A stretch of DNA of 64,000 nt, from the sequence record NC_019517.1. One strand, given 5' to 3'. The notes under the pieces are model-generated. The model saw only the letters and a list, made by a program, of their open reading frames with translations, did no database searches and was not told where the DNA came from. The position numbers were made by a program, and so were the translations under genes. This document shows, one piece after another, positions 20,027 to 58,362 of this stretch (its first letter is position 1; every line of letters starts with the position of its first letter). This stretch comes from Escherichia phage FV3.

Positions 20027-20275
20027 GTGTCATCTATGTACAAGTCATTTTCAATCTACTCAAGACAGGCAAAACACTACACGGAGATTCTGATCACTCA
20101 GAAAAAGTCTGTAGAAGGTGAGTGGGAATATCATCATAAAATGTTGCGTCCAGACTGGGTTTTTGATAGACTTATTGCTATGATTCCTCTTGGAGAAGTA
20201 TACCCTCTGACAGGTCATAGGGATGCTTGGGATTTAATTGATTACATAGATTCATTTAAGGAGCCTGGTGTATGA
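20027..20275 (+). CDS. hypothetical protein
   Basis: 82-aa ORF. Confidence 0.45.
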   Translation: MSSMYKSFSIYSRQAKHYTEILITQKKSVEGEWEYHHKMLRPDWVFDRLIAMIPLGEVYPLTGHRDAWDLIDYIDSFKEPGV

Positions 20276-20670
20276 AGATTGAGATCACTAAAGAAGGTAA
20301 GAAAGTGTCTGGCGATTATGCAACAGTAATTCGGGATGTAATGTTTGAAGTAACCCAGATTGGTACGTCTAAGGTTGGTCAAACGGTAAGTGTGCAAGGT
20401 AATATTGCCACAGGTGAAAAGATAATCATTGTGATCAAAGGACAAGACCCTGTGGAAGGAACAGTGGGCCGAGGAGGCTACCTGTGCATTTCTGAAGAAC
20501 CGCGTATGCTGGTTGCTGATGACTCCACAGGTAAAAAGCGGGTATGTAACACGGACGAGGTGATGATTATCTATCCAGTCAACCCAGATGATCCGGCAAC
20601 ATGGATTGTGGGAAATGAAATCTTCTCTTTAGAAGAGTTATCCTTCCCAGCTCCGCGCTCTGTTCAGTAA
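20272..20670 (+). CDS. hypothetical protein (possible small acidic family member)
   Basis: 132-aa ORF starting MKIEIT. Confidence 0.45.
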   Translation: MKIEITKEGKKVSGDYATVIRDVMFEVTQIGTSKVGQTVSVQGNIATGEKIIIVIKGQDPVEGTVGRGGYLCISEEPRMLVADDSTGKKRVCNTDEVMIIYPVNPDDPATWIVGNEIFSLEELSFPAPRSVQ

Positions 20671-20709
20671 TAATTTATCTTACCAGGGACGGTAGAAGTA
20701 GGAGGTAGC

Positions 20710-20943
20710 ATGAAAGTTAAATTTCTTACAGATTTAGGGTACCCTTCCTTGGTTGACTGCGTTGGTAAAATTGTGGAAGCAAAACGACTATCTGCAAACG
20801 ATAATGTTGTCATGGTTAAGGGAAAAGATTTACTATCTGCAGGTGCAGAGTCTGGCAGGATCTCTCCTGACTATACGTATTACCTGTCTTTAAGTAATCT
20901 ACCAGAACGAGGCGGCAAAGGCCTTGAAGTTGTGGAGGAGTGA
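20710..20943 (+). CDS. small acidic protein, MKVK family
   Basis: 77 aa; MKVKFL... ending LEVVEE; RBS GGAGG. Confidence 0.5.
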   Translation: MKVKFLTDLGYPSLVDCVGKIVEAKRLSANDNVVMVKGKDLLSAGAESGRISPDYTYYLSLSNLPERGGKGLEVVEE

Positions 20944-21467
20944 CAGGTATGCTGCTAGTTGATTGGAAAGATTTTTATGGCGATAAAGACCCGAAAGCCT
21001 TTATATATAAACCTTGGAGATACTCAGAGAGTCAAATTGCTGCAATAAACCTTACAGCAAAGCGCCGAAAAATTATCGAAAGTAAATACAGGTACGCTCA
21101 GCTAGTGGCTGGTGTTTCTCCACAGGTAGAGAGTTTTGTGCTTAAACTGTACGAAAAGTTTATGAGTTACGATCTGTCATTCGTGAAGGTGGGTGAGGAT
21201 TTATCCCCTGGTAACAACGTAACACGTTGGAAAGTTTCATGCGACAAAAAACTTCCGGTAAGTATTGAGGTGTGTCGATACTGGGGGTATCATGAGTGTG
21301 GCTTTTATGACTACCATGATGTAGAAATAAAGCCACGCAATCATCTAAGCGACCCAGAAAAAGATTACTTGAAGCATGTGATTCTTTCCATGTTTGGAGG
21401 GTATATCACAGAGAAAAATAGCGAAGACAGAATATCCTTTCTTAACAGTTTGAACCGGGAGATGTAG
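20940..21467 (+). CDS. hypothetical protein
   Basis: 175-aa ORF. Confidence 0.5.
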   Translation: MTGMLLVDWKDFYGDKDPKAFIYKPWRYSESQIAAINLTAKRRKIIESKYRYAQLVAGVSPQVESFVLKLYEKFMSYDLSFVKVGEDLSPGNNVTRWKVSCDKKLPVSIEVCRYWGYHECGFYDYHDVEIKPRNHLSDPEKDYLKHVILSMFGGYITEKNSEDRISFLNSLNREM

Positions 21468-21468
21468 T

Positions 21469-21705
21469 ATGACTATAGACACTGTGCTGGTTTGGTATTG
21501 CGCATTGACCTTTCTGACAATGGTTGTTTTAGCAACTCTTTGCATCATATCTTGTAGAAAAATTAAGTTTGACGACTTTATAACTATAATCACTGCCGCA
21601 CCTTTTTGGCCTGTTGTTCTCTTCATTGCGGTTATGTGCTTGGTGGATCACTGTAAAACCGTCAGGAAAATGAAGGAGGCAGATAAGAATGGTAACAGTG
21701 ACTGA
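21469..21705 (+). CDS. small membrane protein
   Basis: 78 aa with two hydrophobic segments. Confidence 0.45.
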   Translation: MTIDTVLVWYCALTFLTMVVLATLCIISCRKIKFDDFITIITAAPFWPVVLFIAVMCLVDHCKTVRKMKEADKNGNSD

Positions 21706-21907
21706 AACTGTTTATACTGTTCTTAGGGAGATTGCATTCTATACAGACCTTAGTTCAGTATCTTCATGGGAAAAGAGTGTGTATTTAAAATGGTGCGTGA
21801 AATTAGAGGGGACCTTCTAATGTTTCAAGCCATGTTTATTGAAATGCTCTCCGGAGTATTACTGCTGGTAGCCATTTTGGGTGGTGCGGCGCTAATGTAT
21901 AATTATC

Positions 21908-22111
21908 TTGAAAAAGGGGACAGTAATGACAAAAAATAAATCCTTAGAACAGGCTGAAAACCTTCTCCACGAGCTGGTAAAGGAGTGGAAAGTTGAATAC
22001 TCAGATTTTAATGCAAGAGAGGGGGAAGATTATTGGCCTACGGAGCGCTCAGAGGGAGAGTGGTATCAAGATTTCATAGAATGGTTATATCAGACGTGCG
22101 ATGAGGGGTGA
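21908..22111 (+). CDS. hypothetical acidic protein
   Basis: 67-aa ORF; likely ATG start at 21926. Confidence 0.4.
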   Translation: MKKGTVMTKNKSLEQAENLLHELVKEWKVEYSDFNAREGEDYWPTERSEGEWYQDFIEWLYQTCDEG

Positions 22112-22569
22112 CGATGTTTGTTAAATATGTAAAAACGTGCCTCAACAACCTTGGTAGAGAGCATTGGTACACCTTGCTTGAAAAAGGAGAAATTTTAACA
22201 AAATCTGGAAAGATAACTCTGATACCTTTGGATGATAAAGACCCGTCACTACTTGTCATAGATGATTACGTTACAGGTGTGTCGTACGAGGTCTCTGTGG
22301 AGAGGTTAATACGCAGATCTGGAGGGCCTTATGACCGAAGAGAGTATGTTTTCGATTCTGTTACAGAGAAGGAGGATCCGTCTCTAATGTTTAGGATGGT
22401 AATCAGGGATATGAAATCATCTATAAATAGGATTGTAAAGGACATTAAGGAGCCTTTTAGGGTAAAAGTTAAGAAGTTTTTTGATTCTAAGATTAACATA
22501 CTCGCCGTTGTGCTAGGCGTAATTCAACTTCTGTTAATTTTGCACTATCTTGAACTGTTGTTCAAGTAG
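22108..22569 (+). CDS. hypothetical protein with C-terminal TM segment
   Basis: 153-aa ORF. Confidence 0.5.
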   Translation: MTMFVKYVKTCLNNLGREHWYTLLEKGEILTKSGKITLIPLDDKDPSLLVIDDYVTGVSYEVSVERLIRRSGGPYDRREYVFDSVTEKEDPSLMFRMVIRDMKSSINRIVKDIKEPFRVKVKKFFDSKINILAVVLGVIQLLLILHYLELLFK

Positions 22570-22577
22570 TGTGCAAC

Positions 22578-22594
22578 AAGGCACAAAGGATGTG
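22578..22594 (+). promoter_or_regulatory. intercistronic stem-loop (copy 2 of 2)
   Basis: GGCACA-AAGGA-TGTGCC immediately after stop of 22108..22569; compensatory to 15620-15635. Confidence 0.4.
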
Positions 22595-22629
22595 CCATGA
22601 TTAAATAAACTAAGAAAGAGGTAGAGAGA

Positions 22630-22977
22630 ATGCCAAAGATTAAGTCGATATTAATGTGGGCAGCTGTTGTGGCTTTTGTAGGATACTGGACTTGGGAAAC
22701 TGAATTAAAAGATATCGGGTATACCAGTCTTGAGAGCAAGGCATGCATTGGCATAACCGATGCATTCAGGCAAAATGCTATGGATCACGAATGTGTCGAT
22801 GCAGATATAGATGAGAAACTGTCTAAGGACAAGGATTTTTACCATGGTCATGCCTTGCTTGATAGTGGTGACACTGTAGAATTCTGGTCGTGGTTCCGTG
22901 AAGATGGAACAATAAAGACAGCAGTAAAGATTTCCAACAAAGAGTTAATGCTGTTGCAGCAGAAGGAGGTGCAATGA
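22630..22977 (+). CDS. hypothetical protein with N-terminal TM/signal segment
   Basis: 115-aa ORF; RBS AAGAGGTAGAGAG. Confidence 0.5.
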   Translation: MPKIKSILMWAAVVAFVGYWTWETELKDIGYTSLESKACIGITDAFRQNAMDHECVDADIDEKLSKDKDFYHGHALLDSGDTVEFWSWFREDGTIKTAVKISNKELMLLQQKEVQ

Positions 22978-23261
22978 TCTGGATATCCTACACTGATGGC
23001 ACCATGCTGTATACTGCAGGTACTAGGTATGAAGTTCAGGAGGACGATAAAAAATTTATCGTAAAAACATTTGACAAGGACGAAAACCTTTTGTTAGAAT
23101 TGACTTACAAGGTTGGGGAGGTATCTAGCATCCAATTGGATTGCGGTCATAAAGATAACCCACTCAAGAAACCTGGGGTAGGTAAAGCTTCAGAAGAACG
23201 CCTGTCTCGTATTGCAGAAAGCGTTTCTGCACAAAAATCTAAGAAGGGGACTAGAAAATGA
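22974..23261 (+). CDS. hypothetical protein
   Basis: 95-aa ORF. Confidence 0.45.
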   Translation: MIWISYTDGTMLYTAGTRYEVQEDDKKFIVKTFDKDENLLLELTYKVGEVSSIQLDCGHKDNPLKKPGVGKASEERLSRIAESVSAQKSKKGTRK

Positions 23262-23452
23262 AAAACTTACGTTTTAACACTTATTACTACAACACTTTGA
23301 ATGATTTGTATTATATTATTCGAAGTAAAAGTCCTGAAACAGTCCTATTCTGCCGCGAACCTTTCAAAGGGGAGGAAGTAGAGTCTGAGATGAATGTTAG
23401 CCATATTACCTCTTTGTTGCTCTCAGGTGCAATGGAAGAAGCAATATTCTAA
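23258..23452 (+). CDS. hypothetical protein
   Basis: 64-aa ORF. Confidence 0.4.
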   Translation: MKNLRFNTYYYNTLNDLYYIIRSKSPETVLFCREPFKGEEVESEMNVSHITSLLLSGAMEEAIF

Positions 23453-23470
23453 ACCAGGCGGGAGGGTTTT

Positions 23471-23656
23471 ATGAAGCACTATTGCCTGTTTGGTAGGATG
23501 GGTGTAGAGTGTGATTGGGTTTTCTTAAAACTTGTCAGCATCCGAGAGTCAATCCCAGAGGAAGAGCAAGAAAGTGAGCTGATGTCATGGATCAGCTATT
23601 ACGGCAACACTTTCCGGTATGTCAAAATGGAAGGGCTGCCAAGCGAGGATGATTGA
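23471..23656 (+). CDS. hypothetical protein
   Basis: 61-aa ORF. Confidence 0.4.
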   Translation: MKHYCLFGRMGVECDWVFLKLVSIRESIPEEEQESELMSWISYYGNTFRYVKMEGLPSEDD

Positions 23657-23751
23657 TTATGATTGCATCAATATTAACGTTTATGGGTGGCGTGGCGGTC
23701 GGATTCATTATTTGCCTGTTTATAGTGATTATGTCTATGCGAGGCTGACTT

Positions 23752-24036
23752 ATGAAACTGTTCGAGTGGTTTAAAAAGTTTAAATACCGGGCCGTTGCTG
23801 TATCGAAATGGACTGTCCGCTGGGTGGACAATGATGGAACACAAATTCCAGGTGATCAGGATACCGGATACTGGGTTATGATGGAGAACGGATTTGGGAA
23901 AAGGAAGTTTAAATGTGTTGGTGCTCCTACCCTTTTAAATGTTAGAAGTGTGCCAGGGTACAGCACTCTGGTTGTTTGGGAGCTATCCGGTGTTCCTCCT
24001 GCCAATGTGCAATACTTGCCAAATTCAGAAAAATAA
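23752..24036 (+). CDS. hypothetical protein
   Basis: 94-aa ORF. Confidence 0.45.
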   Translation: MKLFEWFKKFKYRAVAVSKWTVRWVDNDGTQIPGDQDTGYWVMMENGFGKRKFKCVGAPTLLNVRSVPGYSTLVVWELSGVPPANVQYLPNSEK

Positions 24037-24048
24037 AAGGAGAAAATA

Positions 24049-24333
24049 ATGAGCAATGGTATTAGCAACAATGCTGCAGAGTTTAAAGTGATCTGTAAAG
24101 GCACTTATTGGATAGTGAAACAGAAGGTGTACCTATTCGGTTTCATACCGTTTTGGCAGAGATTTTGCTGGGGAGCTAACGAGCTTAAGAGATACGCCAC
24201 CAAGGCTATGGCACTTATTGGTATAGCTGAATACATTGCTGCCAGGGACAGAGAGGGGAAAACTTGTTACTACACTGCTGACGAGATTCGTAACAGTGTT
24301 TACGTTCCACAACCGCCCGATGGAGACCGCTGA
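24049..24333 (+). CDS. hypothetical protein
   Basis: 94-aa ORF; RBS AAGGAG. Confidence 0.45.
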   Translation: MSNGISNNAAEFKVICKGTYWIVKQKVYLFGFIPFWQRFCWGANELKRYATKAMALIGIAEYIAARDREGKTCYYTADEIRNSVYVPQPPDGDR

Positions 24334-24557
24334 TGAAAGTGAAAGTTTTAGATTCAAACTTCTATATTGGTCAAGAGCCTTTAGTTGGAAAAGTGTTTAC
24401 CGCTATCCCTAACGAAGATTATCCTGACCTTTTAAAAATAAAAGGGGAAGATCTTATTGCCGCTGGCGCGTCTCAGGAATGCTTTGACAGTCAGTGGGCC
24501 TACAACTTTGCCCTAGGGGAGGATGTGGAGATAGTGGAGGACGATTATGAAGGTTAA
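24333..24557 (+). CDS. small acidic protein, MKVK family
   Basis: 74 aa, MKVKVLDSNFYIGQ...; tandem paralog of next gene. Confidence 0.5.
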   Translation: MKVKVLDSNFYIGQEPLVGKVFTAIPNEDYPDLLKIKGEDLIAAGASQECFDSQWAYNFALGEDVEIVEDDYEG

Positions 24558-24801
24558 AATTCTTGACTCTAACGTCTACTTGGGACAATCATTCCTGAAG
24601 GGAAAGGTAGTACCTGCTGTATACTTCGAAGGGTTGCCGTGGGATGATCCTGTGCGGCAAAATCACAGCTATGTAGGCCACAATGTGGTGTTCATTTTGG
24701 GATCAGACCTGATCGCGGCTGGTGCTCCGGAATATTATTTCGGAGAGGACTCGTATTATGCCTTTGGGGTAGGGTCAGATGCAGATATTTTAGAGCCGTG
24801 A
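24547..24801 (+). CDS. small acidic protein, MKVK family
   Basis: 84 aa, MKVKILDSNVYLGQ... Confidence 0.5.
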   Translation: MKVKILDSNVYLGQSFLKGKVVPAVYFEGLPWDDPVRQNHSYVGHNVVFILGSDLIAAGAPEYYFGEDSYYAFGVGSDADILEP

Positions 24802-25212
24802 TTGGGGACTGTTGTGAAAAATAAACTGTTCAAAGTTACAATGAAAATTCGCGGAGCTTGGAGCGTAAAGCAAGGGCGTATCCCGGAATTTGAGAAAGAC
24901 TTCTACGTAGTCTCCACCTCTGAAGAGGCTGCATGCTGGCAGGCTGGCTATGCCTATGCAAGAACTTGGTACGAAGGGTACCAAACTGGGGGCTATGACG
25001 GAGAAATTGTCAGTAAGGGTGTGGAAGAAATTAATGTGTTGACAAGTGAAAAAGTTTTTGTTATAGTGCATCCTGATTCCAGAGTGAAGCATTACTGGAA
25101 TGCCAGAACAAAAACCTGGACACCATTTGCAGATTCTGCTACACCACTTTTAAACCAGAAAGCTCTTGACTCTGCCCCGAGCTACGGGGTTGTTGAAGAA
25201 AAAATAAGCTGA
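24802..25212 (+). CDS. hypothetical protein (paralog of 27016..27411)
   Basis: Shares HP.S...YW....WTP motif with 27016..27411; start uncertain (ATG at 24841). Confidence 0.45.
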   Translation: MGTVVKNKLFKVTMKIRGAWSVKQGRIPEFEKDFYVVSTSEEAACWQAGYAYARTWYEGYQTGGYDGEIVSKGVEEINVLTSEKVFVIVHPDSRVKHYWNARTKTWTPFADSATPLLNQKALDSAPSYGVVEEKIS

Positions 25213-25229
25213 AATAGTGGGGTACTTAC

Positions 25230-25520
25230 ATGATGGATTTAGTTTTGGATACTGATAACACCGAATCGTTTAAAAAAGATGGTGTAATAAGCATGGACCA
25301 ATCCTGCCATGCCAAGATTGACTCAAAATGGACCTACAAGTTTGACGGTGAGATCTTCGCAAATGATGAGAAGGTTGTGGATGCTGTAGCCATTTTAAAC
25401 GCTTTAGGGTATGACCCTGTGAACTCATTGATCAAGGATCCTGTTGAGTTTGCAGAGTATGTTCGTAAAATGGCAGATCTTGCAGTAGATATTTTAAAAA
25501 CTATCGACGACAAGCTGTAA
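25230..25520 (+). CDS. hypothetical acidic protein
   Basis: 96-aa ORF. Confidence 0.45.
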   Translation: MMDLVLDTDNTESFKKDGVISMDQSCHAKIDSKWTYKFDGEIFANDEKVVDAVAILNALGYDPVNSLIKDPVEFAEYVRKMADLAVDILKTIDDKL

Positions 25521-25526
25521 AAACTG

Positions 25527-25555
25527 TTGACACAACATTTGATCTTTAGTATCAT
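25527..25555 (+). promoter_or_regulatory. sigma70-like promoter (TTGACA-17-TATCAT) upstream of hpf-like gene
   Basis: TTGACA 25527-25532, TATCAT 25550-25555; followed by hairpin 25564-25584 and RBS AAGGAG. Confidence 0.5.
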
Positions 25556-25602
25556 TATTTCCAAAGAGGGTTTGGTTCCCTCTTCTTTAAAAGGAGCACG
25601 TT

Positions 25603-25920
25603 ATGCAGATTGAAATTACTGGCAACGTAGAGATCACTGAAGGTATGGTGTCTTTCATTTCCCACAAAATGTCCAAACTGGAGCGTTTGCACCCATCTGC
25701 CAACTATGCACGTGTGAGTGTAAAAGTTGAAAATGATCACCAGGAAGTTATGGCTTTTATTTTTGACAATTCTGGGAAAGAAGTTATCGCCAAAGCTAAA
25801 GGTAGCGATGCTTACGAGGCAACTGACCGTATGGTGGATGTTGCAGCACGCCAGTTGGCTAAATGCGGTGGAAAGAAAGGTAAGGGAAAAGGTAAAGTAA
25901 AGATTGACTTTTGGGATTGA
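25603..25920 (+). CDS. hpf: ribosome hibernation promoting factor homolog (HPF/RaiA/YfiA family)
   Basis: 105 aa; MQIEITGNVEITE...KLERL...VSVKVE...AKAKGSDAYEATDRMVDVAARQLAK aligns along its length with bacterial HPF as recalled; Lys/Gly-rich tail. Confidence 0.75.
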   Translation: MQIEITGNVEITEGMVSFISHKMSKLERLHPSANYARVSVKVENDHQEVMAFIFDNSGKEVIAKAKGSDAYEATDRMVDVAARQLAKCGGKKGKGKGKVKIDFWD

Positions 25921-26057
25921 GGTGCTACAATGAGTATGATTAAGAAATTAGTCCCAAATGTAGAGATTGCATGCTTTGAAATTATGTTTGCAATCGCAGT
26001 TGTAGTTAATGTGTTAGGTTACGACTATTAATATCAAATAATTGAGGAGACCTCTAA

Positions 26058-26327
26058 ATGAAAATTAAATTATTCAAAACTGAGCTGGCAGACAAAAACT
26101 GCGGACTGGTTGAAGGCATGATCGTTGAAGCACAACCAGTGGACTACATGAAGGTGGTTCGTGATGCTCTGGGTGAAGGTTTTGATCTGATGGAGCCAGC
26201 TCTGCGAGAAGATGTCATCGAGATGGCTAAAAAGCACACACCTGAAGGCTTGGTAGTGTTTGTTGCTCCAGGTAACGGAGAAGAGTTGATTGTAACTCCG
26301 GATGTGTATGAGGTTGTAGAGGAGTAA
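26058..26327 (+). CDS. small acidic protein, MKVK family
   Basis: 89 aa, MKIKLF... ending YEVVEE; RBS GAGGAGA. Confidence 0.5.
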   Translation: MKIKLFKTELADKNCGLVEGMIVEAQPVDYMKVVRDALGEGFDLMEPALREDVIEMAKKHTPEGLVVFVAPGNGEELIVTPDVYEVVEE

Positions 26328-26415
26328 TCTTGGGTTAGCCATACTTCCTCGACAAGAAAGGTTTGTAATTATTTGTGGGAAAGGAATCCCCATCTCTTAC
26401 CAGAGGTGATACTGT

Positions 26416-26679
26416 ATGATTGTTTATTTTAAAACTTCAGGTGGATACCCTGATTCTCAAAGCTTGATTGGAAAAACGTGCACAGCATACTCGCCTCTTG
26501 ATGATGAGGTAAGTGATACCCTACGAAATATGTATCGGATTGATCCACAAGAAGCTTTTGATCAGAACCTTGTATTTGTCAAGGGCTCAGACATGAAGTC
26601 TTTGGGGGCATTTCCTGAAGCAGATGATAATGCTGTTTATTCGTTTATGACCCCTTTTGAAGCTATGGTTGTTGGGTGA
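26416..26679 (+). CDS. small acidic protein (probable family member)
   Basis: 87-aa ORF. Confidence 0.45.
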   Translation: MIVYFKTSGGYPDSQSLIGKTCTAYSPLDDEVSDTLRNMYRIDPQEAFDQNLVFVKGSDMKSLGAFPEADDNAVYSFMTPFEAMVVG

Positions 26680-26683
26680 GAAT

Positions 26684-27016
26684 ATGAAAGTACGCTTTAT
26701 TGGTGAAACAATTCCTGTGCATCTCCGGTCGCCTGAGGATTCTGCAGATCTTGCATCTCAAAAGGCCAGAGGGTATGATAAGAAAGTAATCTCAACCGAT
26801 GTAGAGCTTGAGGCTACCAGTCTGCCTGACCCTGCTGCATTCTTTAATCATTATGGATACTATTTCAGCAATCTGATGAATATCGGTGAGCTTGTGTTTA
26901 TTAGTGGTGGAGAAATAGTTAGCAAGCTTGGCGGCGATCCGGATGTCTTTCATGAAACCTGCCCTTTTGCATTTGTGGTAGGTTCAGATGTGGAAGTTAT
27001 TGAGGAGGTGCGGTAA
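26684..27016 (+). CDS. small acidic protein (probable family member)
   Basis: ATG at 26684 (MKVRFIGE...), ends VEVIEEVR. Confidence 0.45.
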   Translation: MKVRFIGETIPVHLRSPEDSADLASQKARGYDKKVISTDVELEATSLPDPAAFFNHYGYYFSNLMNIGELVFISGGEIVSKLGGDPDVFHETCPFAFVVGSDVEVIEEVR

Positions 27017-27411
27017 TGGTAAGTCTATACCGTGTTGAGTATAGCTCAGATACTGTATACAACGTAAGAAGCAAAGATCGTAGCGACAGAGTGCAAGAAA
27101 TGTATGTTCTTGCCGACAGTCCGTTATCTGCAGCGTTTAAGGCAGGAGCTCTTGCATCTCGTTGGAAATTCGAGGGTGGATCTTTCTATGAAGAAACTCT
27201 TGAAGATTCTGTTGTTATTTCTTCTGTAGAGGTTTCAACTGACTACGAAGGGAAAAAGTTCGTAATGCGGCACCCACACAGCAACATTGCGTACTACTGG
27301 GATGTTCTGAACAACGAGTGGACTCCAGATCTTCAGAAGGCCACTGTTCTGACTCCGTTCTTGGCAGATAAGTTCCCACCAGAAGGTAATTTATCTGCAC
27401 TGTTTCAGTAA
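27016..27411 (+). CDS. hypothetical protein (paralog of 24802..25212)
   Basis: 131 aa; shared HPHSNIAYYW...WTP motif. Confidence 0.5.
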   Translation: MVSLYRVEYSSDTVYNVRSKDRSDRVQEMYVLADSPLSAAFKAGALASRWKFEGGSFYEETLEDSVVISSVEVSTDYEGKKFVMRHPHSNIAYYWDVLNNEWTPDLQKATVLTPFLADKFPPEGNLSALFQ

Positions 27412-27429
27412 TTTTATTCTACACAGGTG

Positions 27430-27458
27430 TTGACAACACCAACCCTGTGTGCAATAAT
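27430..27458 (+). promoter_or_regulatory. sigma70-like promoter (TTGACA-17-AATAAT)
   Basis: TTGACA 27430-27435; TGTGCAATAAT resembles an extended -10. Confidence 0.4.
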
Positions 27459-27487
27459 ACCTTCATCTTAACAAGACAGGAGACTGA

Positions 27488-27748
27488 TTGATGAAGATTA
27501 AATTGAAAAACCTTGAAATGGCAGAGGTTCAGGAAGGTGTTGATTTCCGCTCTAAAGATGGCGACATCTTAGAGGCGAATATCCCGACCTATAAGTTGAT
27601 TAAAGGTTTTGGCAACGTTCCTGAAGAGGATATTACAGACATTCTTATGATGTTGATCCTTGACGGGACCGTGTTTGTAGGTGAAGGTGAGAACGCTATT
27701 GCAATCCCAGGCCATTTTTATGAAGTAGTTGACGAAGAGGTGCTGTAA
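27488..27748 (+). CDS. small acidic protein, MKVK family
   Basis: 86 aa, MMKIKLKNLE... ending YEVVDEEVL. Confidence 0.5.
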   Translation: MMKIKLKNLEMAEVQEGVDFRSKDGDILEANIPTYKLIKGFGNVPEEDITDILMMLILDGTVFVGEGENAIAIPGHFYEVVDEEVL

Positions 27749-28099
27749 ATGAAAGTAGAGATCACAGGTTTTGATATGAATGTGGTTCCGGAAGATATTT
27801 TAGCTAAACTTCCGGAAGGTTTTGGTAACGGTGTTGTGGTGGATGCTGTCCCTCCTACCAAAGACATTCTGCTGCAGTATGGTGTAGCAGAGGAAGATGT
27901 CGATAAAGTTCTTACAATGATGGCAATAGACCGTGTTGTCGTTGTTAAAGGTCTTGAAGGTTTTGATGACGATCCTCTGATTATTCGTGGTGATGACTAT
28001 CGCATCATCGACAACGAAGGCCAAGAGTTCTACGAACCTTCTGCTGAAGATGTTCTTAACTTACTACTGGAAGCAGGCACCGAAGAGGAGGAAGAATAA
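27749..28099 (+). CDS. small acidic protein, MKVK family
   Basis: 116 aa, MKVEITGFDM..., poly-Glu C-terminus. Confidence 0.5.
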   Translation: MKVEITGFDMNVVPEDILAKLPEGFGNGVVVDAVPPTKDILLQYGVAEEDVDKVLTMMAIDRVVVVKGLEGFDDDPLIIRGDDYRIIDNEGQEFYEPSAEDVLNLLLEAGTEEEEE

Positions 28100-28428
28100 T
28101 GAAAATTGATCCGTTACTAAAGGCTCGTGCAGAAAAAGCATACACTATCAAGCTGACCTCTCTGGTCCCTACTTGTCATCCGGATGTAGGTTGGCCTGAA
28201 GGCCTGGTAGAGGGGACTGTAACAGCTGCATACCTTCCTAACATCAAATACCTCATGGAGATCTTGGAGATGGATGAGGAAACGGCAGAACAGTTCCAGT
28301 TAGACATGAAGCAAAGTGGGACTCTGGTTATTCACGGGTGGTATAATACTAAAGATGCAGAAGATCCCCTGGTAACTTCTAATCTGGCATATGAAATCTT
28401 AGGACCTTTGAACTTGGGGGAAGACTAA
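28099..28428 (+). CDS. hypothetical acidic protein
   Basis: 109-aa ORF, ATGA-coupled to neighbours. Confidence 0.45.
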   Translation: MKIDPLLKARAEKAYTIKLTSLVPTCHPDVGWPEGLVEGTVTAAYLPNIKYLMEILEMDEETAEQFQLDMKQSGTLVIHGWYNTKDAEDPLVTSNLAYEILGPLNLGED

Positions 28429-28715
28429 TGAAAGGTTTGGTTAAGATCAAGATTAAAGACACCAAGGGAGAACTCAGCCATTTTGGAATTAACGATGGTG
28501 ACGAGCTGATCGCCCACCTGCCTACCAAGGAAGTTGTAAGCAAAGCTGTTGCCGGAGAAGAAGATGCAATGCAGGCTGCAGGTGTGGATGAAAACTATGT
28601 AGCAATGTGTATGTGCCGAGATCAGGTTGTTCTGTATAAAGCGTATCGACCAAATGGAGCACCTGAGTGGCTTGTTTTCCGACCCGAAGGGTATGAAATT
28701 TTAGAGACGCTATGA
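28428..28715 (+). CDS. hypothetical protein
   Basis: 95-aa ORF. Confidence 0.45.
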   Translation: MKGLVKIKIKDTKGELSHFGINDGDELIAHLPTKEVVSKAVAGEEDAMQAAGVDENYVAMCMCRDQVVLYKAYRPNGAPEWLVFRPEGYEILETL

Positions 28716-28804
28716 TAAATCTTGCCAAGGTTGCAACGGCACTGTTAATTATTTGCTGGATAGTGACCTTGGCACTATGTCTTGTATTTCATTAAGGGGG
28801 CTGT

Positions 28805-29068
28805 ATGAACATCCTGATGTGGGTTGTGGCAGTGGCGTTTGTTGCGTGCCTCTCTTGTTGGGTTGCTGTGAGGATTTCTATAGCCACTCTTCGGAAATTA
28901 GGGTTCTCAGAGTGGGATATTAATATCCTCTCTTTTCGCAATGAGACGATCTCAGCTGCCTTACTGTGCAAGAAGTTCAAGTGGAAACCTTGGGAGGTCA
29001 TGAGCTATCTAAGAACAGGGGATATTCCTGAGAGATTTAAAAAAGTTCTTGACGGCGAAGATAAATGA
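28805..29068 (+). CDS. small membrane protein
   Basis: 87 aa with N-terminal TM segment. Confidence 0.45.
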   Translation: MNILMWVVAVAFVACLSCWVAVRISIATLRKLGFSEWDINILSFRNETISAALLCKKFKWKPWEVMSYLRTGDIPERFKKVLDGEDK

Positions 29069-29096
29069 TAGTATAGTTACTAACAAGAGGTGAGGA

Positions 29097-29237
29097 ATGA
29101 CTGATTTTACTGAAGCTTTAATGATGGCCTTATCCGTTTTAGCGCTATCTGTGTGTTTTGGGGCGTTATTCACATCTCTGGTTAAAGTTTTACATACCAT
29201 ATTATCACCCAAGGAGCACAGTAATGACGAAGATTGA
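29097..29237 (+). CDS. micro-ORF encoding 46-aa hydrophobic peptide
   Basis: ATG after GAGGTGAGGA RBS; single TM-like segment; not in ORF track (<60 aa). Confidence 0.35.
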   Translation: MTDFTEALMMALSVLALSVCFGALFTSLVKVLHTILSPKEHSNDED

Positions 29238-29475
29238 CTTAAATGCTGGAGACCATGTTGTTGTCAAATGCATCGGAGATTATCTTGGATTCACAATCGG
29301 CAATACTTACGAGGCGGTAGTGGCGAAGGTTTACCATGATAAAGTCCTCAGCCTTGTATTTGACTGTGATGATGACGGAGATGACCGCTACGTCTGTGAG
29401 GTGCTGGCTCGTGACGATAGTGAAGACCAGAAATTCCTGGTTACCGAACTGAACGGTATTTTTGTAGAACGTTAA
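29224..29475 (+). CDS. hypothetical acidic protein
   Basis: ATG at 29224 after AAGGAG RBS (ORF track start 29158). Confidence 0.45.
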   Translation: MTKIDLNAGDHVVVKCIGDYLGFTIGNTYEAVVAKVYHDKVLSLVFDCDDDGDDRYVCEVLARDDSEDQKFLVTELNGIFVER

Positions 29476-29503
29476 TTTAAAACAATATAAGGAGACTCTT
29501 ACT

Positions 29504-29809
29504 ATGGCTAAATCTAAAGTTGAACTGTTCACCTCTCTTCCTTCTGACACTGCAGAGCGTGATCGCCTCCGTAAAACAATTGAAGAGCTGGTAGAACTTC
29601 AGCTTCAGATTAAAGATCTGAAAGACGCTATCAAGGATATTATTCTTGTCGAGAAACAGGATCACCTGTATTCTCCTAAGTTTATCAAGTCCTTGGTGGC
29701 TACCGAATTCGATATCCGCTACGAGGCTGAAAAACGTCGAGCTAAAATCGAAGAAGAGGTTGAGCACATGTCTGAAGCAGACATTCTGTTCAAACGCTCT
29801 GCAGAATAA
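29504..29809 (+). CDS. hypothetical coiled-coil protein
   Basis: 101-aa ORF; RBS AAGGAGA. Confidence 0.5.
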   Translation: MAKSKVELFTSLPSDTAERDRLRKTIEELVELQLQIKDLKDAIKDIILVEKQDHLYSPKFIKSLVATEFDIRYEAEKRRAKIEEEVEHMSEADILFKRSAE

Positions 29810-29814
29810 CGACA

Positions 29815-29840
29815 AAGAGGGGTCTTGGCCCCTCTTTTTA
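29815..29840 (+). terminator. intrinsic terminator
   Basis: AGAGGGG-TCTTG-GCCCCTCT followed by TTTTTAC. Confidence 0.55.
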
Positions 29841-29862
29841 CTATCTATGAAGGAGATCAGAA

Positions 29863-30189
29863 ATGCTAATGCCGATTACTGTAAAAGAGCTAAATGAACG
29901 TGATGCAGGGGGCCTATGGCCTGCGCGGAAAATACGCTGCGTTTATATGAAAGAGAATCTTGAGCACCTTGATCAACAGATTGCGGTGGGGGATATTTTC
30001 GAAGTTTTCTATTCTAATCGCCGCAACTGGGAAACCATTCAACCTTCAGGTTTTGTTCTTGCCAAACTTGATACCGGAGAAGTGATTATCCCTGGGCTGG
30101 ATATTGTCTTCGAAATTATCCAGGAGTGGGATCCTGATAAGATTAAATATGAAGAGTTATTCGGTGAAGGTATTATCAAGCCTGTGTGA
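29863..30189 (+). CDS. hypothetical protein
   Basis: 108-aa ORF; RBS GAAGGAGA. Confidence 0.5.
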   Translation: MLMPITVKELNERDAGGLWPARKIRCVYMKENLEHLDQQIAVGDIFEVFYSNRRNWETIQPSGFVLAKLDTGEVIIPGLDIVFEIIQEWDPDKIKYEELFGEGIIKPV

Positions 30190-30497
30190 GGTGGATTATG
30201 TCTACAACGACAGCTAAATACTCCTATATGCCAGCAACCTCCGCAGAAATAGACTTCAGTTTCGATGTGTTTCCATTGTTTGAGATAGTCCTGGCATACC
30301 CAACAACTATATCTACTCCTGAATCACTTGTGCCTATTAAGTTGCAGAACGCTATGCATTCCATGCACTACAACAATAAATGCAGGCACAGATGGTGTCA
30401 GGACGAGGAAAAAGATCTAGATAGTTTGAAAGATTTTGACAATCACCTTTTGACCCCTTTCAGCTACTCTAACCTGGACAAGCCCTCATGGGTATAG
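30186..30497 (+). CDS. hypothetical protein
   Basis: 103-aa ORF. Confidence 0.45.
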   Translation: MRWIMSTTTAKYSYMPATSAEIDFSFDVFPLFEIVLAYPTTISTPESLVPIKLQNAMHSMHYNNKCRHRWCQDEEKDLDSLKDFDNHLLTPFSYSNLDKPSWV

Positions 30498-30522
30498 CAA
30501 AATATCAAATTTAAGGCACCTA

Positions 30523-30548
30523 GGACGCTCTGTGGCGTCCTTTTCTTT
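30523..30548 (+). terminator. intrinsic terminator
   Basis: GGACGC-TCTGTG-GCGTCC followed by TTTTCTTT. Confidence 0.55.
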
Positions 30549-30710
30549 ATCTGGTGCACGATTGCATACCTTGGGTAGTTAATCTCATTACAGAGCGTTT
30601 AATAGCGGCCTGTAAACAGATCTCTATTTCGAGCGTAGCGAGAACGCACGTCCGTTTTGACCCAAATCACCATACGCTCGGATTTTAACCAAACCCTCGC
30701 GGCGTTTCTG

Positions 30711-30739
30711 TTGACACATTACCGCTCCTGTGATAGTAT
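30711..30739 (+). promoter_or_regulatory. sigma70-like promoter (TTGACA-17-TAGTAT)
   Basis: TTGACA 30711-30716, TAGTAT 30734-30739. Confidence 0.4.
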
Positions 30740-30857
30740 CCTCACATAGTTTGTAGAATATGAAATACGCAATGAAAACATTATCTGAGGTTTTAGTGGT
30801 GATCCTGATGATCATTACGTCCATAGCAGTTGTTGCCGGAATACTCACGGGTGGAAC

Positions 30858-31046
30858 ATGACCAACACACATGCACCTAAAGAGACATCTGAAGAAGCGA
30901 CTATAGAGAAAAACTTCAATTCTGAGGATTCTTTATCTCCGTCTCAGGTAGATCCTGAGGCTGATGACCTGACGTGGGAAGACATCGTAGACATCTGGTT
31001 CTCTATCATGCCTGAGCACGAAGAGTTCAGAGGTGGGAGACTATGA
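30858..31046 (+). CDS. hypothetical acidic protein
   Basis: 62-aa ORF. Confidence 0.4.
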   Translation: MTNTHAPKETSEEATIEKNFNSEDSLSPSQVDPEADDLTWEDIVDIWFSIMPEHEEFRGGRL

Positions 31047-31165
31047 AGCACCGAGCCCACATAAGTTTATCATGCTAAAGCATGGCCTGAAGAGGCAAAC
31101 GTGCATAATTCCAGTGCATTGGAACGTATAACCCTGTTCACACTCTCATTTCCAGAGGAGATTTT

Positions 31166-31381
31166 ATGAAGATAGAAATATTTGGTGGAGCTGACAACAC
31201 TCGTGGCCTGATTTACCTTGAATTCGATGAATCATACCTGCCAGAGGTGTTAAATATAGACTCTGTTGCTGAGGCTTTGGGAGTAAACCCTAAAGAACTC
31301 CACTCTTGTGCTGAGATCGATGGTTGGGAAGAGACCATGAACATTGATTTCAGTGAAGTAGAGGATGAACCGCTGGACTGA
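31166..31381 (+). CDS. small acidic protein, MKVK family
   Basis: 71 aa, MKIEIFGGADNT...; last rightward gene before strand switch. Confidence 0.5.
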   Translation: MKIEIFGGADNTRGLIYLEFDESYLPEVLNIDSVAEALGVNPKELHSCAEIDGWEETMNIDFSEVEDEPLD

Positions 31382-31593
31382 CACACAATTAGCTGCCCGG
31401 CTAAAGTGCTGGAAGCACCTATAACACATCTTTCAACTAAATTTCCTACCACCACAATCACTTACCTCCCACACATGACTGTTTGCTTGTTTAGTGAGCA
31501 GTCATTCCTTGACATTCTTGCCTATCCTGATAAAATTAAGTTCTTCTCTTTTCTTTTACCGAGTAATTCGGGTTTTCTGTTCTCTTCGGTTTG

Positions 31594-31810
31594 AAGGGGT
31601 ATGGAGATACACCTGAGTGAACAGGGTGAACAACCGAACCTTTAGCTATGGCATTAGCATGGCGAAGCGGACGGGTGACGAAAGAGGGGCCGGAGGACAC
31701 CAGTCACTGCCATATGGTATATGGGTGATAACCTGAAGAGTCTGAATAAGTGTTTAAGTACCAGTCAGAGGAAAAGGTGAATGGTAGCCGAAGGGGGAGG
31801 GGGGTTTCTT
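31594..31810. other. G/purine-rich non-coding segment, candidate structured RNA
   Basis: No ORF >=60 aa on either strand; composition unlike flanking AT-rich DNA; ends in G-run GGGGGAGGGGGG; strand undetermined. Confidence 0.3.
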
Positions 31811-32589
31811 GTATCTTTAATTTGTATACTTTATATACACTTGTAAACCAATTCAATTAGAATATGGATACCACACAAAGTGGATAGAGGCAAATATTCC
31901 CTATTAAACTTGAATTATTTATAGAAAATACCACAACACTGCTTAAGTCTTTGATTTTACACACAAATATTACAAATATCCTGCCTCTATATTTAACATA
32001 CCTGTAACATATTCCATACTCTCCCTGATTGATCAATTCCCCAACTACATCCCCATATTTTCCCTTCCTGTACTACCCCTGCCCCGCCGGGAGTCCCGTC
32101 ATATCTGGCTTTCCAGCAAATATCACACCCACAAATATCATTGCCTGAAGAGGGTTTCATCCCATAATACCTGCCTTACCCGAAGAGCGCTTCATACACC
32201 ACGTAAATTTTTTAATTGACCTGCAATTTTCCTGCAGACCCACCCCCTGCCCAGCCGGAGAGGTTGGCTTTTCCCACACAGGCCTGAAGAGTCAGCCAGA
32301 AATATCTGAAGGGGGTCCAGTTCTACCACGATTTTGACCTGACCTACAGGAGCGCTGCCAGGCGGACGAAATGGGAATACTTCTCATTCTTATAACAATT
32401 CTCAAATATCGGGGCAGTGAGGCAAATTAATAGGCGAGGCCGTTCACACAGTGGCACAACATTTGCAAGCTATTTTGCGGGGGTGAATGAGAATACCTAT
32501 CATTGTGAGAATAGTTATCATTACGGGCAATTTAACATAATACCCATTATGCGCACCACTGGCGATACATACAGGGATTGATAACATGG

Positions 32590-33230
32590 GTTACTGTTTA
32601 CGCATATAACAATTGTATTTCTTATTATTTGTGGGGGATATAGTTAGCAACCAATAGATTAGTTATTAACCTGCGGACTTCTGACCGTCTAGACGTCCAA
32701 ACGCCCACACCACAAGGATTATACATACACTCCTGCATGTAAACAGGGCCGCAAAAATGCTACCATACCAGTTTGTAAATTTTCCATGCAGCACTTGACA
32801 AAGAGGAGAAAAACTTGTCTGACACACTGGACACCTTATACACCTTATACACTTTCGATACAATAACGATTGTTATTATTTCATGTTTCACTGTTCACGT
32901 ATAGATTGTTCCTGCATAGACTGTTTACGCCTGGATAGTTTACACCTTGACAGTTTACGCAGATATGATAAGCCATGACATTCGTTTGCATAGTTGCCTT
33001 ATTGTTACAGGTAAAACAATTACATTGTTAACTATTTCTTATCTTTCTCTTAGTCATCTAATGATTCCAGTCAGTATAGTTATGTACAGTAAACATTAGA
33101 CGACTAAATATTTCTCTGATTATAGTAACCTATCGTGACAATTTCTAACTGTTTACGAAAAATGTTGACACCTGGGCAGGTTTATGTTATGCAGTTTGTA
33201 CGAATAATTATTTTGTACAGGTATTGACTA
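32590..33230. repeat. iteron-like degenerate direct repeats (TGTTTACGC family) in non-coding strand-switch region
   Basis: CTGTTTACGC / TGTTCACG / GTTTACAC / AGTTTACGC / TGTTTACG / GTTTGTACG copies, densest 32889-32960; AT-rich; no convincing ORFs. Confidence 0.4.
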
Positions 33231-33605
33231 TTCCGTTATTCTGTGGTTGGAATAAATACTTTGCAGGCTATAGAATGGTGATCGTACGTGGATTCTGAGA
33301 TCTGTCGGCTATAGTTACACCCGATTTTTCACGTAGGACACGCTTTTTGGTTTGTGTAAGTGTATGACTTATAAGGGTTTTTAATTGTTGACAGTATACT
33401 GAAGATGTGCATCAGGTTAAATTTTGTGCAATAGCTGCATTACGTGCAATTTTGGGAGAGAAAACGGGTAAAAATAGCACCGCTACCACACAATGAAAGG
33501 TTATGCAATAGCTATTTTACATGTATATTTGTACAGTGTGCGGGATTGATGGCTCGTCAATTATTCCACTTGTCAGGTAGGGCCGTTTATGGTAGGAAAA
33601 GAGCA

Positions 33606-33633
33606 GACAAAAAGAAAGGGGCCTAAGCCCCCT
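33606..33633 (-). terminator. intrinsic terminator (leftward transcripts)
   Basis: GGGGGC-TTA-GGCCCC hairpin followed by U-run on minus strand, just after stop of 33647..33910. Confidence 0.45.
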
Positions 33634-33646
33634 TGATAATGTTGTA

Positions 33647-33910
33647 TTATTTGTTGCTCATCCAGTTTTCCCAAGCTGCCTGATAATCTGCCTCACTGCG
33701 GCGGATCTCTTCTTGTTCTTCAAGCCGGATCTCTTCTTCCAGGTACCCAAGGATATCGGATTTTTTGGTCTGGCGTAACATCCAATCATCTTTTTTACGA
33801 GTAAAGATCTTGTACGCTTTCTCGCAAACCTCTTTTTTACTACCTTTTTGGACTTCAAGAACTTTGTAGGCCATGTACTGAACTAGTTTGAGCTGATCAA
33901 GACGTTTCAT
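33647..33910 (-). CDS. hypothetical protein
   Basis: 87-aa ORF. Confidence 0.5.
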   Translation of the reverse strand: MKRLDQLKLVQYMAYKVLEVQKGSKKEVCEKAYKIFTRKKDDWMLRQTKKSDILGYLEEEIRLEEQEEIRRSEADYQAAWENWMSNK

Positions 33911-33973
33911 GATGTTTACCTCTTTATGGGGTTCTGGTTTGGTGTGGGCCTTTTGGCCCGTGTCATTATCTTA

Positions 33974-34246
33974 TTACTTGCGGCGGCAAAATTCAAGCGT
34001 TTTTAATTGATAATCTTCCTCAGCCTGGAGTACAACCGCCTCGATCATTTCGTTGGCATTGGTGAAGCCATACCCTTTAGCGAACTCATCCGCGCCACCT
34101 TCGTGATCATGTTCTGCGTTCATCGCTTCCACAAAATGGAATTCCAGGTTATTGAGATAAGGGCTTGATGTTCCGTCCTCTTTTTCGATGAGATCCCAAA
34201 TAGCATTAAAACGTGATTCGACTTCTTGGTTAATCCAGCTTGACAC
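33974..34246 (-). CDS. hypothetical acidic protein
   Basis: 90-aa ORF. Confidence 0.5.
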   Translation of the reverse strand: MSSWINQEVESRFNAIWDLIEKEDGTSSPYLNNLEFHFVEAMNAEHDHEGGADEFAKGYGFTNANEMIEAVVLQAEEDYQLKTLEFCRRK

Positions 34247-34586
34247 GGCGTTTTCCTCTCTTCTGGTTGTTGTGTGGGCACTTTTGCCCCTTCAAGGTAA
34301 ATGCTACCCCACCACCCGGCAGATGTCAACGGTTTTTATAGTTTTTTATATAACGGGCACCCCTGGTGATTGTCTCCCCCCGTCGCCAGGTGCCGCCCGT
34401 GAAACAAGTATAACAAAAAACAGGACCATTGCAAGCCCTGTTTATTATCTTAAAACCAGGTGCCAACCGTTTCCAATAGATCACTGACTATCAGGACAAT
34501 ACTGATCAGCACATACCTAACCATAAAGGGAAAGATCGCCAACATTGCCGCCACGATCCCCATGGTGATAATTATCTTTCTCATGA

Positions 34587-57600: not shown

Positions 57601-58362
57601 TTACTGCCCATTAATTCTGCTCCTTACTGCAGGCTCGTTTGCTAAGAATACAGCTTTAGCCCAGCCACGTGGTGTAAGGCTTCGAATCATCTTCGTCCTT
57701 GCACTCTTTCCACCTAGCTTAGCGTGTTGCATAGAATAACCACTGACCGCATCCACTATTTGCGGGACAGGTTTTGTGGCTGGGATTATAAAGCCATTGC
57801 CTATCCAACCGCAAGTTATTTTTGGGTAGGCATCACGTGGAGCTATAAATTCAGGAAACCACGGGTTTACATCATCTTCTGGTAAATAACCGCCATAATC
57901 CGAAGGATGAAAACGATAATCAGGTTTACGCCACAGCGTTGACATAACCCCTACAGGGTTCTCTACATGCCACGGGCAATCATAAATCTCTCCCAACTCT
58001 TCTGCAACCCGAGCATCTTTTACAGCATTAATTTGGATCAGAGGGTCTTTAGCCAGCTTTTTCTTAAAATGTGCAGCACCTGATACCGCCAAATGCGTGC
58101 ACGGAGGAAACGCAAGAATAAAGTCTGGAGCAGGATACATGCAAAAAGTTTCCTGAGGGAACCACGGATCAATCCAATAATCCACATAGTGAATATTGGG
58201 GTGATCGGTTATCACCTCCGCATAACTGCCGTGGTCAGCACCTTCTGCATTAAAGCACAGGCACAGATACCCAGCTTTTGCCCAGTCAATGACTGCACCA
58301 CCAGACCCATCAAATAGACTCCACACAACACCTTTGTGGTGGTGTTCTTTGTAGATAAATTT
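57601..58362 (-). CDS. minimal C5-cytosine methyltransferase-like protein (no obvious target-recognition domain)
   Basis: Motif I-like LFDGSGG, motif IV-like FPPCTHLAVSGA (PC), motif VI-like WHVENPVG; ~254 aa; TTG start at 58362 after AGGAGA RBS. Confidence 0.45.
   Translation of the reverse strand, partial: KFIYKEHHHKGVVWSLFDGSGGAVIDWAKAGYLCLCFNAEGADHGSYAEVITDHPNIHYVDYWIDPWFPQETFCMYPAPDFILAFPPCTHLAVSGAAHFKKKLAKDPLIQINAVKDARVAEELGEIYDCPWHVENPVGVMSTLWRKPDYRFHPSDYGGYLPEDDVNPWFPEFIAPRDAYPKITCGWIGNGFIIPATKPVPQIVDAVSGYSMQHAKLGGKSARTKMIRSLTPRGWAKAVFLANEPAVRSRINGQ

Follow-up and report, generated by a model that had tools for sequence, protein, structure and literature searches.

Two paralogous families of small proteins with a predicted SH3-like barrel fold in the small-gene block of Escherichia phage FV3

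We analysed a 64,000 nt stretch of the genome of Escherichia phage FV3 (NC_019517.1; hereafter the window), in which an earlier note, made from the sequence alone, had described a single expanded family of seven to twelve small acidic proteins starting MK(V/I)K, encoded in tandem arrays between positions 20272 and 31381. Ten of the twelve candidate genes are genuine paralogues, which fall, however, into two distinct sequence families of five genes each, referred to here as Fam1 and Fam2 (Table 1; genes are designated by the position of their first nucleotide), and the remaining two, 20272 and 31166, lie outside both. The products of both families very probably fold as SH3-like, five-stranded beta-barrels, to judge from structural models of one member of each. 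Taken as a whole, the explanation that we favour, in which these paralogous barrel proteins would act early in infection as non-catalytic binders, is given a probability of roughly 55 %.

Evidence for two paralogous families

All-against-all blastp of the 39 + strand genes located between 17.6 and 31.4 kb yielded three clusters, with within-family E-values of 1e-14 to 1e-3. The first contained 20710, 24333 and 24547, with weaker links to 26416 and 26684; the second contained 27491 and 27749, to which 26058 and 28428 were linked more weakly; and the third was the pair 24802 and 27016, which is absent from the earlier note and is termed Fam3. As some of the Fam2 links were weak, we built an ortholog-group profile for each gene (n=39), using orthologues from five Vequintavirus genomes together with database hits, and compared all 741 pairs by hhalign. 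The best 14 pairs were all within-family and all 21 within-family pairs ranked in the top 50, with the first unrelated pair appearing at a probability of 29 %. Iterated hidden Markov model (HMM) searches converged on 20710, 24333, 24547, 26416 and 26684 for Fam1, and on 26058, 27491, 27749, 28099 and 28428 for Fam2. When the whole window was scanned in six frames with the HMMs, five Fam1, five Fam2 and two Fam3 genes were recovered and no others, all of them at 20.7–28.7 kb. The alignments and HMMs proposed in the earlier note as a check therefore resolve two five-gene families and the Fam3 pair.

Membership was further examined by a leave-one-out test, in which a profile built from the other four ortholog groups was used to score each member, with 500 shuffled versions of that member, retaining its composition and first 5 residues, as controls. 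The ten members scored 16.6–68.5 bits and their own shuffles reached maxima of 5.5–16.4 bits, such that 0/500 shuffles attained the real score in every case; internal motifs were, in addition, conserved across the full-length family alignments. Both observations contradict the reading that there is no real family and that the likeness amounts to a common MK start and an acidic composition, which the earlier note had named as the outcome that would refute it. That reading does fit 20272, 31166 and the comparison of Fam1 with Fam2 at the sequence level, and the 'EE' ends of several proteins are in part imposed by downstream Shine–Dalgarno sites (see below), but for the ten members we regard it as practically untenable. 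The expansion by duplication is accordingly genuine, with paralogy established by the HMMs, hhalign and the shuffle controls.

Within Fam1, the closest pair was 24547 and 24333 (blastp 1e-14, hhalign 99.6 %; leave-one-out score of 68.5 bits for 24547), followed by 20710 (hhalign 98.8 % to 24333; 31.8 bits vs a shuffle maximum of 8.4). The match was weaker for 26684 (seed HMM 19.3 bits; leave-one-out 22.9 bits vs 6.7; hhalign 91.8 % to 24547 and 89.7 % to 24333) and for 26416 (seed HMM 22.4 bits; leave-one-out 20.9 bits vs 7.8; hhalign 72.6 % to 20710). In Fam2, 27749 was linked to 27491 by both blastp (2e-5) and hhalign (96.4 %) and scored 40.1 bits, whilst 26058 (16.6 bits vs a shuffle maximum of 10.4) and 28099 (16.8 bits vs 5.5) were joined by hhalign to 27491 (83.8 %) and 27749 (79.9 %), respectively. 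The weakest member by pairwise profiles was 28428 (45.6 % to 26058 and 43.8 % to 27749), with a leave-one-out score of 25.9 bits against a shuffle maximum of 11.4. Part of Fam1 is already united in the PHROG database, where phrog_5009, of unknown function, includes 20710, 24333 and 24547 (E = 8.5e-36 to 3.6e-32) and, weakly, 26416 (E = 1.4e-4); no match to it at E ≤ 0.01 was found for 26684 or any Fam2 gene. These latter six genes are placed there in one-gene families, with no record of their links, function or fold; the singleton PHROGs of the set are 13920, 13661, 11868, 12359, 12155, 12457 and 12794, the seven members other than the three strong phrog_5009 matches being listed apart from one another.

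The twelve open reading frames (ORFs) listed in the earlier note were all present on the + strand, at lengths of 71–132 aa, and agree with the RefSeq gene calls of phages JES2013 and rV5. ORF 27488 begins with TTG; the ATG at 27491 yields MKIK and agrees with the RefSeq call, and is the start adopted here. The rV5 names of the twelve are gp121, 122, 135, 136, 141, 142, 143, 145, 146, 147, 148/149 and 158. The rV5 genome paper has no more to say of the stretch than '88 mainly small ORFs', and the words paralog and duplication are absent from it. In rV5 itself (NC_011041.1, 10026-10296) the annotation divides the orthologue of 28428 into two short ORFs that overlap, gp148 and gp149, which points to a frameshift or a sequencing error in rV5; the gene is uninterrupted in the window, as in other relatives.

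Table 1. Genes and promoter matches of the small-gene block in the window
Feature	Position	Strand	Length (aa)	rV5 name	Remarks
Fam1 member	20710..20943	+	77	gp122	Most widely conserved type; phrog_5009 E = 8.5e-36
Fam1 member	24333..24557	+	74	gp135	Modelled representative (predicted SH3-like barrel)
Fam1 member	24547..24801	+	84	gp136	11-nt overlap with 24333; short insertion between strands 2 and 3
Fam3 member	24802..25212	+	136	gp137	Length from TTG 24802 (alternative GTG 24814); follows Fam1 pair; dN/dS 0.02
RaiA/HPF ribosome hibernation factor homologue (g25603)	25603-25920				PF02482, E = 1.8e-12; middle of small-gene block
Sigma-70-like promoter match	25904..25931	+			TTGACT-16-TACAAT, with TG; 10/12 consensus; upstream of 26058
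Fam2 member	26058..26327	+	89	gp141	First gene after RaiA/HPF homologue
Fam1 member	26416..26679	+	87	gp142	Starts MIVY; ~20-aa insertion between strands 2 and 3
Fam1 member	26684..27016	+	110	gp143	~50-aa insertion between strands 2 and 3
Fam3 member	27016..27411	+	131	gp144	1-nt overlap with preceding Fam1 gene 26684
Sigma-70-like promoter match	27430..27458	+			TTGACA-17-AATAAT, extended -10 TG; 11/12 consensus; ahead of four-gene Fam2 operon
Fam2 member	27491..27748	+	85	gp145	Modelled representative (predicted SH3-like barrel, two-helix insertion between strands 2 and 3)
Fam2 member	27749..28099	+	116	gp146	Net charge -22; acidic C-terminal tail
Fam2 member	28099..28428	+	109	gp147	N-terminal loop extension
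Fam2 member	28428..28715	+	95	gp148/gp149 (split)	

The features by which the group had originally been picked out were borne out to different degrees. The characteristic start, in the form MK[VI][KERD], is enriched, being found in 8/10 members as compared with 2/29 other genes (Fisher p = 3e-5). Most of the proteins are indeed acidic (pI, the isoelectric point, of 4.05–4.94), the exception being 20710 (pI 5.4), and net charge ranges from -1 for 20710 to -22 for 27749, with -11 each for 24333 and 27491. Translational coupling is likewise apparent, as overlaps or gaps of -11 to +4 nt occur at seven junctions (24333/24547, 24547/24802, 26416/26684, 26684/27016, 27491/27749, 27749/28099 and 28099/28428). 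The (V/I)(V/I)EE ending does recur, but in five members (20710, 24333, 26684, 27491 and 27749) the Glu/Asp codons at the end of the gene (GAGGAG, GGAGGA) themselves form the Shine–Dalgarno site of the downstream gene, which overlaps or abuts them (20925-20943, 24530-24546, 26998-27015, 27731-27748 and 28081-28098). The 'VVEE' signature is thus in part dual coding, tied to translational coupling. Nevertheless, 26058 retains YEVVEE with no coupled gene downstream, such that the motif is more than a by-product of coupling.

The two Fam3 proteins, 24802 and 27016, share 26 % identity (blastp 9e-8, hhalign 93.8 %), both belong to phrog_7379 and display the conserved motif HP.S..YYW...W. Each follows a pair of Fam1 genes, so that the window contains the order Fam1–Fam1–Fam3 two times, at 24333-25212 and at 26416-27411. 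This repeated order, together with the low identity of the Fam3 copies, suggests that a three-gene cassette underwent segmental duplication long ago. For Fam3 we found no Pfam, PDB or distant phage match, and its tblastn matches were confined to the genus.

Predicted fold and the relationship of the two families

One member of each family was modelled with AlphaFold2, using 38 aligned sequences for 24333 and 51 for 27491. The models had a predicted local distance difference test score (pLDDT) of 88.7 and 89.8, respectively, and a predicted template modelling score (pTM) of 0.77 in both cases. Each comprises five antiparallel strands arranged as a small barrel, with structural neighbours that are mainly SH3-like domains, and 27/60 of the top structural neighbour chains were common to both models. 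The common fold that the earlier note had suggested looking for is therefore predicted for both representatives, at 4-23 % sequence identity to the structural matches. In the models, MK(V/I)K forms strand 1, a Gly-containing 'G...A' segment forms strand 2 and (V/I)(V/I)EE forms strand 5. The Fam1 model has one short helix after strand 3, whilst in that of Fam2 two helices make up an insertion between strands 2 and 3; at the site of this helical hairpin the Fam1 proteins 24547, 26416 and 26684 carry insertions of ~10, ~20 and ~50 residues, respectively. The alignments display a conserved core and variable loops, with paralogues differing chiefly in the loop after strand 1 and in the insertion of 0–50 residues between strands 2 and 3.

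Sequence profiles did not place the proteins in any known family of this fold. Searches of Pfam gave no match to the SH3 clan at E ≤ 1 for the ten window proteins or at E ≤ 0.1 for 38 Fam1 and 12 Fam2 homologues, nor to KOW or LSm-Hfq families for the ten proteins and these 50 homologues; the models, moreover, begin with a strand at residues 2-5 and have no N-terminal helix. The lack of Pfam SH3, KOW or LSm matches, as well as the two-helix insertion of Fam2, sets them apart from the SH3-like folds already described (eukaryotic SH3, KOW, PsaE, SH3b and the PhnA-C type). A fold search of BFVD returned only uncharacterised proteins, the best being an 86-aa protein of Vibrio phage Vc1. The second neighbour of the Fam2 model in that search was an 83-aa protein of Shigella phage CM1, a Vequintavirus, which might be the orthologue of a gene of the window (29224-29475). 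The product of the latter, an 83-aa acidic protein starting MTKIDLNAGDHVVVKC, has no profile similarity to Fam1 or Fam2 and looks like another small barrel.

At the sequence level, the single 'MK(V/I)K' family of twelve was not recovered, as 20272, 31166 and the comparison of Fam1 with Fam2 all remained at the level of shuffles. For 20272 and 31166, which were rejected as members of either family, 38-271/500 shuffles scored as high as the real protein; their hhalign matches span only residues 1-5 to 1-16, and the part held in common is the MK(I)E start. No significant relationship between Fam1 and Fam2 was detected by sequence, with cross-family HMM scores equal to those of shuffles.

It is conceivable that Fam1 and Fam2 are nonetheless branches of one ancient superfamily, in which a single barrel gene was duplicated, the copies diverged past recognition and the Fam2 insert grew into a helical hairpin. 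In both families MK(V/I)K makes up the first strand and (V/I)(V/I)E(E) the last, the insertions in 24547, 26416 and 26684 sit where Fam2 has its helical insert and genes of both are interleaved in one block. By hhalign the families align in register over the first 30 columns when enriched alignments are used, though at a probability of 14 % (E = 0.0019) and at 1.5 % with the paralogue alignments. Cross-family scores also lay slightly over background (Mann–Whitney p = 0.003), but most of this excess is due to the MK(V/I)K start, a feature also of two non-members, and the best cross-family pair among the 741 comparisons reached a probability of 5 %. SH3-like barrels are, moreover, very common and arise repeatedly, and we consider common ancestry less likely than not.

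Selection, copy number and distribution

The flagged ORFs are real genes under purifying selection. Across five Vequintavirus genomes the ratio of non-synonymous to synonymous substitution rates (dN/dS) was 0.03-0.17 for the ten members and 0.01-0.27 for other genes of the block. By tblastn, all members sampled were present in about 117 Vequintavirus records at 83-100 % identity. The 'rapidly diversifying' character ascribed to these genes is thus not seen within the genus. The stretch as a whole (20272–31381) matched 121 phage records, nearly all of them rV5-like Vequintavirus coliphages, and is 97.5 % identical to that of Escherichia phage HMD-6. Eighteen GenBank records labelled 'Campylobacter phage' (host C. 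jejuni or Campylobacter) have about 83-98 % protein identity to the region for the members sampled, and look to be either mislabelled or derived from contaminating coliphage.

A comparison of family content across related phages, as had been proposed, found the sampled members throughout the genus and a copy number that varies between lineages. Syntenic contigs of about 120-140 kb in IMG/VR contain one Fam1, four Fam2 and one Fam3 gene, with orthologues of 20710 at 69 % identity and of 26058, 27491, 27749 and 28428 at 36-56 %. A 128-kb ENA contig contains five Fam1, five Fam2 and one Fam3 gene at 29-74 % identity, with neighbouring genes at 33-85 %. For individual members, orthologues of 20710 are 69-74 % identical in divergent relatives, and two divergent lineages possess orthologues of 26058 (56-57 %) and 28428 (39-46 %). 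The presence of orthologues in both divergent lineages indicates that the Fam2 array is older than these lineages. On these comparisons the members evolve no faster than their neighbours, with the exception perhaps of 27749 (29 % identity), and copy number alone differs between lineages. No members were found around the homologue of the g29504 regulator in other Vequintavirinae genera (Seunavirus 4MG and GEC_vB_MG; Mydovirus KPP-1; Certrevirus CR8), but the loci sampled there are non-syntenic, so that this negative does not extend to the whole genomes.

Homologues beyond these relatives are few. When 1.84 billion representative proteins were searched exhaustively by HMMER with the Fam2 profile, 17 clusters were returned, several of them spurious (long repeat proteins); about a dozen were genuine, of which about seven were new small homologues. 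A second large-database search, using a richer Fam1 alignment, added one new cluster only. The exhaustive search also provided a distant homologue of 28099 (P0103). Additionally, a 98-aa protein on a 657-nt ENA contig (P0090) is identical to 28099 over its C-terminal half and unrelated to it over the N-terminal half, for which there is a precomputed match to PF24132, and may be a recombinant or chimeric variant. A related-locus search with another protein (P0101) as the query found none.

Fam1 has a somewhat broader range than Fam2. A 75-aa Fam1 homologue, 43-49 % identical to 20710, is located among small ORFs between the Q antiterminator and holin genes in lambdoid prophages of E. coli and in phage MagusPhagus, and was present in 13/5,426 complete E. 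coli genomes. This resembles the lambdoid 'moron' slot between Q and the lysis cassette, and differs from the arrangement in the window in that there is a single Fam1 copy, within a late operon, and no Fam2 or Fam3 at those loci. A tandem Fam1 pair (71 and 107 aa) was found in an unrelated small phage contig of 8.6 kb (Logan SRR29243441_283792; locus L020, 3990-4518), directly upstream of an HTH_3 regulator and divergent from the structural genes, which include an SPP1-type portal and an SU10-type capsid protein; the second protein of the pair has an acidic C-terminal extension. Such a distribution, with varying copy number and occupancy of temperate-phage slots, is typical of accessory cargo. 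The only other sizeable protein common to the window and the Fam1-carrying lambdoid phages is the product of a 264-aa ORF (57601-58395, - strand), which is 56-59 % identical to a DNA methyltransferase of those phages (annotated so in MagusPhagus).

Proposed role and genomic neighbourhood

The statement in the earlier note that no member has an assignable function was upheld. Pfam searches (ten proteins and 50 homologues), PDB sequence profiles and the BFVD search returned none, PHROG annotations were all 'unknown function' and the literature on Vequintavirus paralogues, anti-defence and transcriptomes held nothing on function or expression timing. As the proteins are small and display no catalytic family signature, enzymes are unlikely. 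The host-takeover or anti-defence role that the earlier note associated with such expansions is conjectural. Early expression, which had been taken for granted, is plausible. The near-consensus sigma-70 matches upstream of Fam2 genes (Table 1) fit transcription by the unmodified host polymerase, and promoter P150 is annotated in rV5 at the site equivalent to 27430-27458.

From these observations we propose that the two five-gene families and the two-gene Fam3 arose by repeated tandem and segmental duplication within the small-gene block of this Vequintavirus-type lytic coliphage, and that each Fam1 or Fam2 gene would yield a single-domain, mostly acidic protein of 74-116 aa with a predicted SH3-like barrel. 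The array would be transcribed early by unmodified host RNA polymerase and its products would bind host (or phage) macromolecules stoichiometrically, without catalysis. The conserved barrel would serve as a scaffold and the variable loops would set target specificity, allowing the array to cover several targets. This functional part of the proposal, namely early, stoichiometric binders on a conserved barrel with variable loops, is tentative, and we hold it with less than even confidence. Several observations weigh against it. The lambdoid Fam1 gene lies downstream of Q and would be transcribed late, which misfits a role confined to early infection; the strong purifying selection, and the presence of the genes throughout the genus, oppose the arms-race diversification seen in many anti-defence genes; and the promoter calls are consensus matches only. 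A bolder version, in which one ancient barrel spread across lytic and temperate coliphages as a scaffold-diversified 'binder set', each loop or insertion neutralising a different host or defence factor and Fam3 acting as the partner of the Fam1 pairs in the F1-F1-F3 order, appears unlikely to us.

The closest precedent is the set of early T4 proteins made up of GoF along with MotB.1 and Frd.2, for which AlphaFold predicts a bent five-stranded antiparallel LSm/SH3-like barrel (Kim et al. 2025, PMC12152347). Both sets consist of small, non-essential-looking proteins of large lytic coliphages, with mutually unrecognisable sequences and a predicted barrel, early timing being documented in T4 and presumed here. 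The two sets are alike in kind only. Those of T4 are longer proteins (barrel plus C-terminal domain) and dispersed in the genome, whereas those of the window are barrel-only or barrel plus insertion and lie in tandem, translationally coupled arrays of up to five copies per family. Membership of Fam1 or Fam2 in the GoF/MotB.1 family was rejected, as the Fam1 and Fam2 HMMs scored GoF, MotB.1 and MotB at -1.6 to 1.7 bits and hhalign gave probabilities of ≤ 0.8 %.

The T4 precedent also bears on the idea that the proteins bind RNA and, as LSm/KOW-like modulators, affect translation or mRNA stability, acting alongside the phage homologue of RaiA/HPF. The gene for the latter, g25603, lies within the block immediately upstream of 26058 and is kept in the divergent ENA relative. 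We nevertheless find this improbable, given that a pI of 4.05-5.4 and a net charge of -1 to -22 are unfavourable for nucleic-acid binding, that no KOW, LSm or Hfq match was obtained from Pfam at E ≤ 1, that there is no sequence relation to GoF, MotB.1 or MotB and that RNA binding is undemonstrated even for the wild-type T4 protein (PMC12152347). The same acidity could instead point to decoys, i.e. mimics of nucleic acid that titrate those host proteins which bind DNA (restriction enzymes or nucleoid proteins, for example) and so constitute an anti-restriction or anti-defence set. The strongly negative charge of most members (-22 in 27749, -11 in 24333 and 27491), their position downstream of early-type promoter matches and their carriage in accessory slots of temperate phages would suit such a function. 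It is, however, quite improbable in our estimation, as 20710, the most widely conserved type, is weakly acidic (net -1), acidity is common among small phage proteins and dN/dS is low.

The array is an ordinary type of phage small-gene expansion and no new system, and by itself it discloses no new mechanism. New here are the division into two families, the assignment of a fold, the F1-F1-F3 gene order and the dual coding of the C-terminal ends. The small ORFan genes that large lytic phages carry in blocks form the chief reserve of host-takeover and anti-defence functions yet to be explored, and ten of the roughly 35 small genes of this block reduce to two families of predicted barrel fold with defined variable loops. 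Phages of the rV5/BASEL Vequintavirus group are used for O157 typing and phage therapy; the defined families provide a rational construct set for pull-down, toxicity and defence-evasion screens in them. They would also represent a second coliphage case, after T4 GoF/MotB.1/Frd.2, of sequence-dissimilar proteins with a predicted small SH3/LSm-like barrel in an early-type promoter block.

With respect to the surroundings of the array, the RaiA/HPF homologue g25603 has a sigma-70-like promoter match of its own (25527-25555); a homologue is present in the divergent ENA relative (locus L019, 9313-9624), and none was detected in that of IMG/VR. Scanning the window for Rfam families and tRNAs gave no match. 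Beyond the small-gene block, nearly 3 kb (~31400-34300) where the direction of transcription switches is ORF-poor and contains many promoter- and terminator-like sites; the equivalent region is termed 'non-coding' in the rV5 paper. An iteron-like repeat, ACTGTTTACGCA, occurs there at 32890, 32920 and 32950 (exact 30-nt spacing), with a fourth copy at 32593, and the region may serve as an origin of replication or as a hub of regulation.

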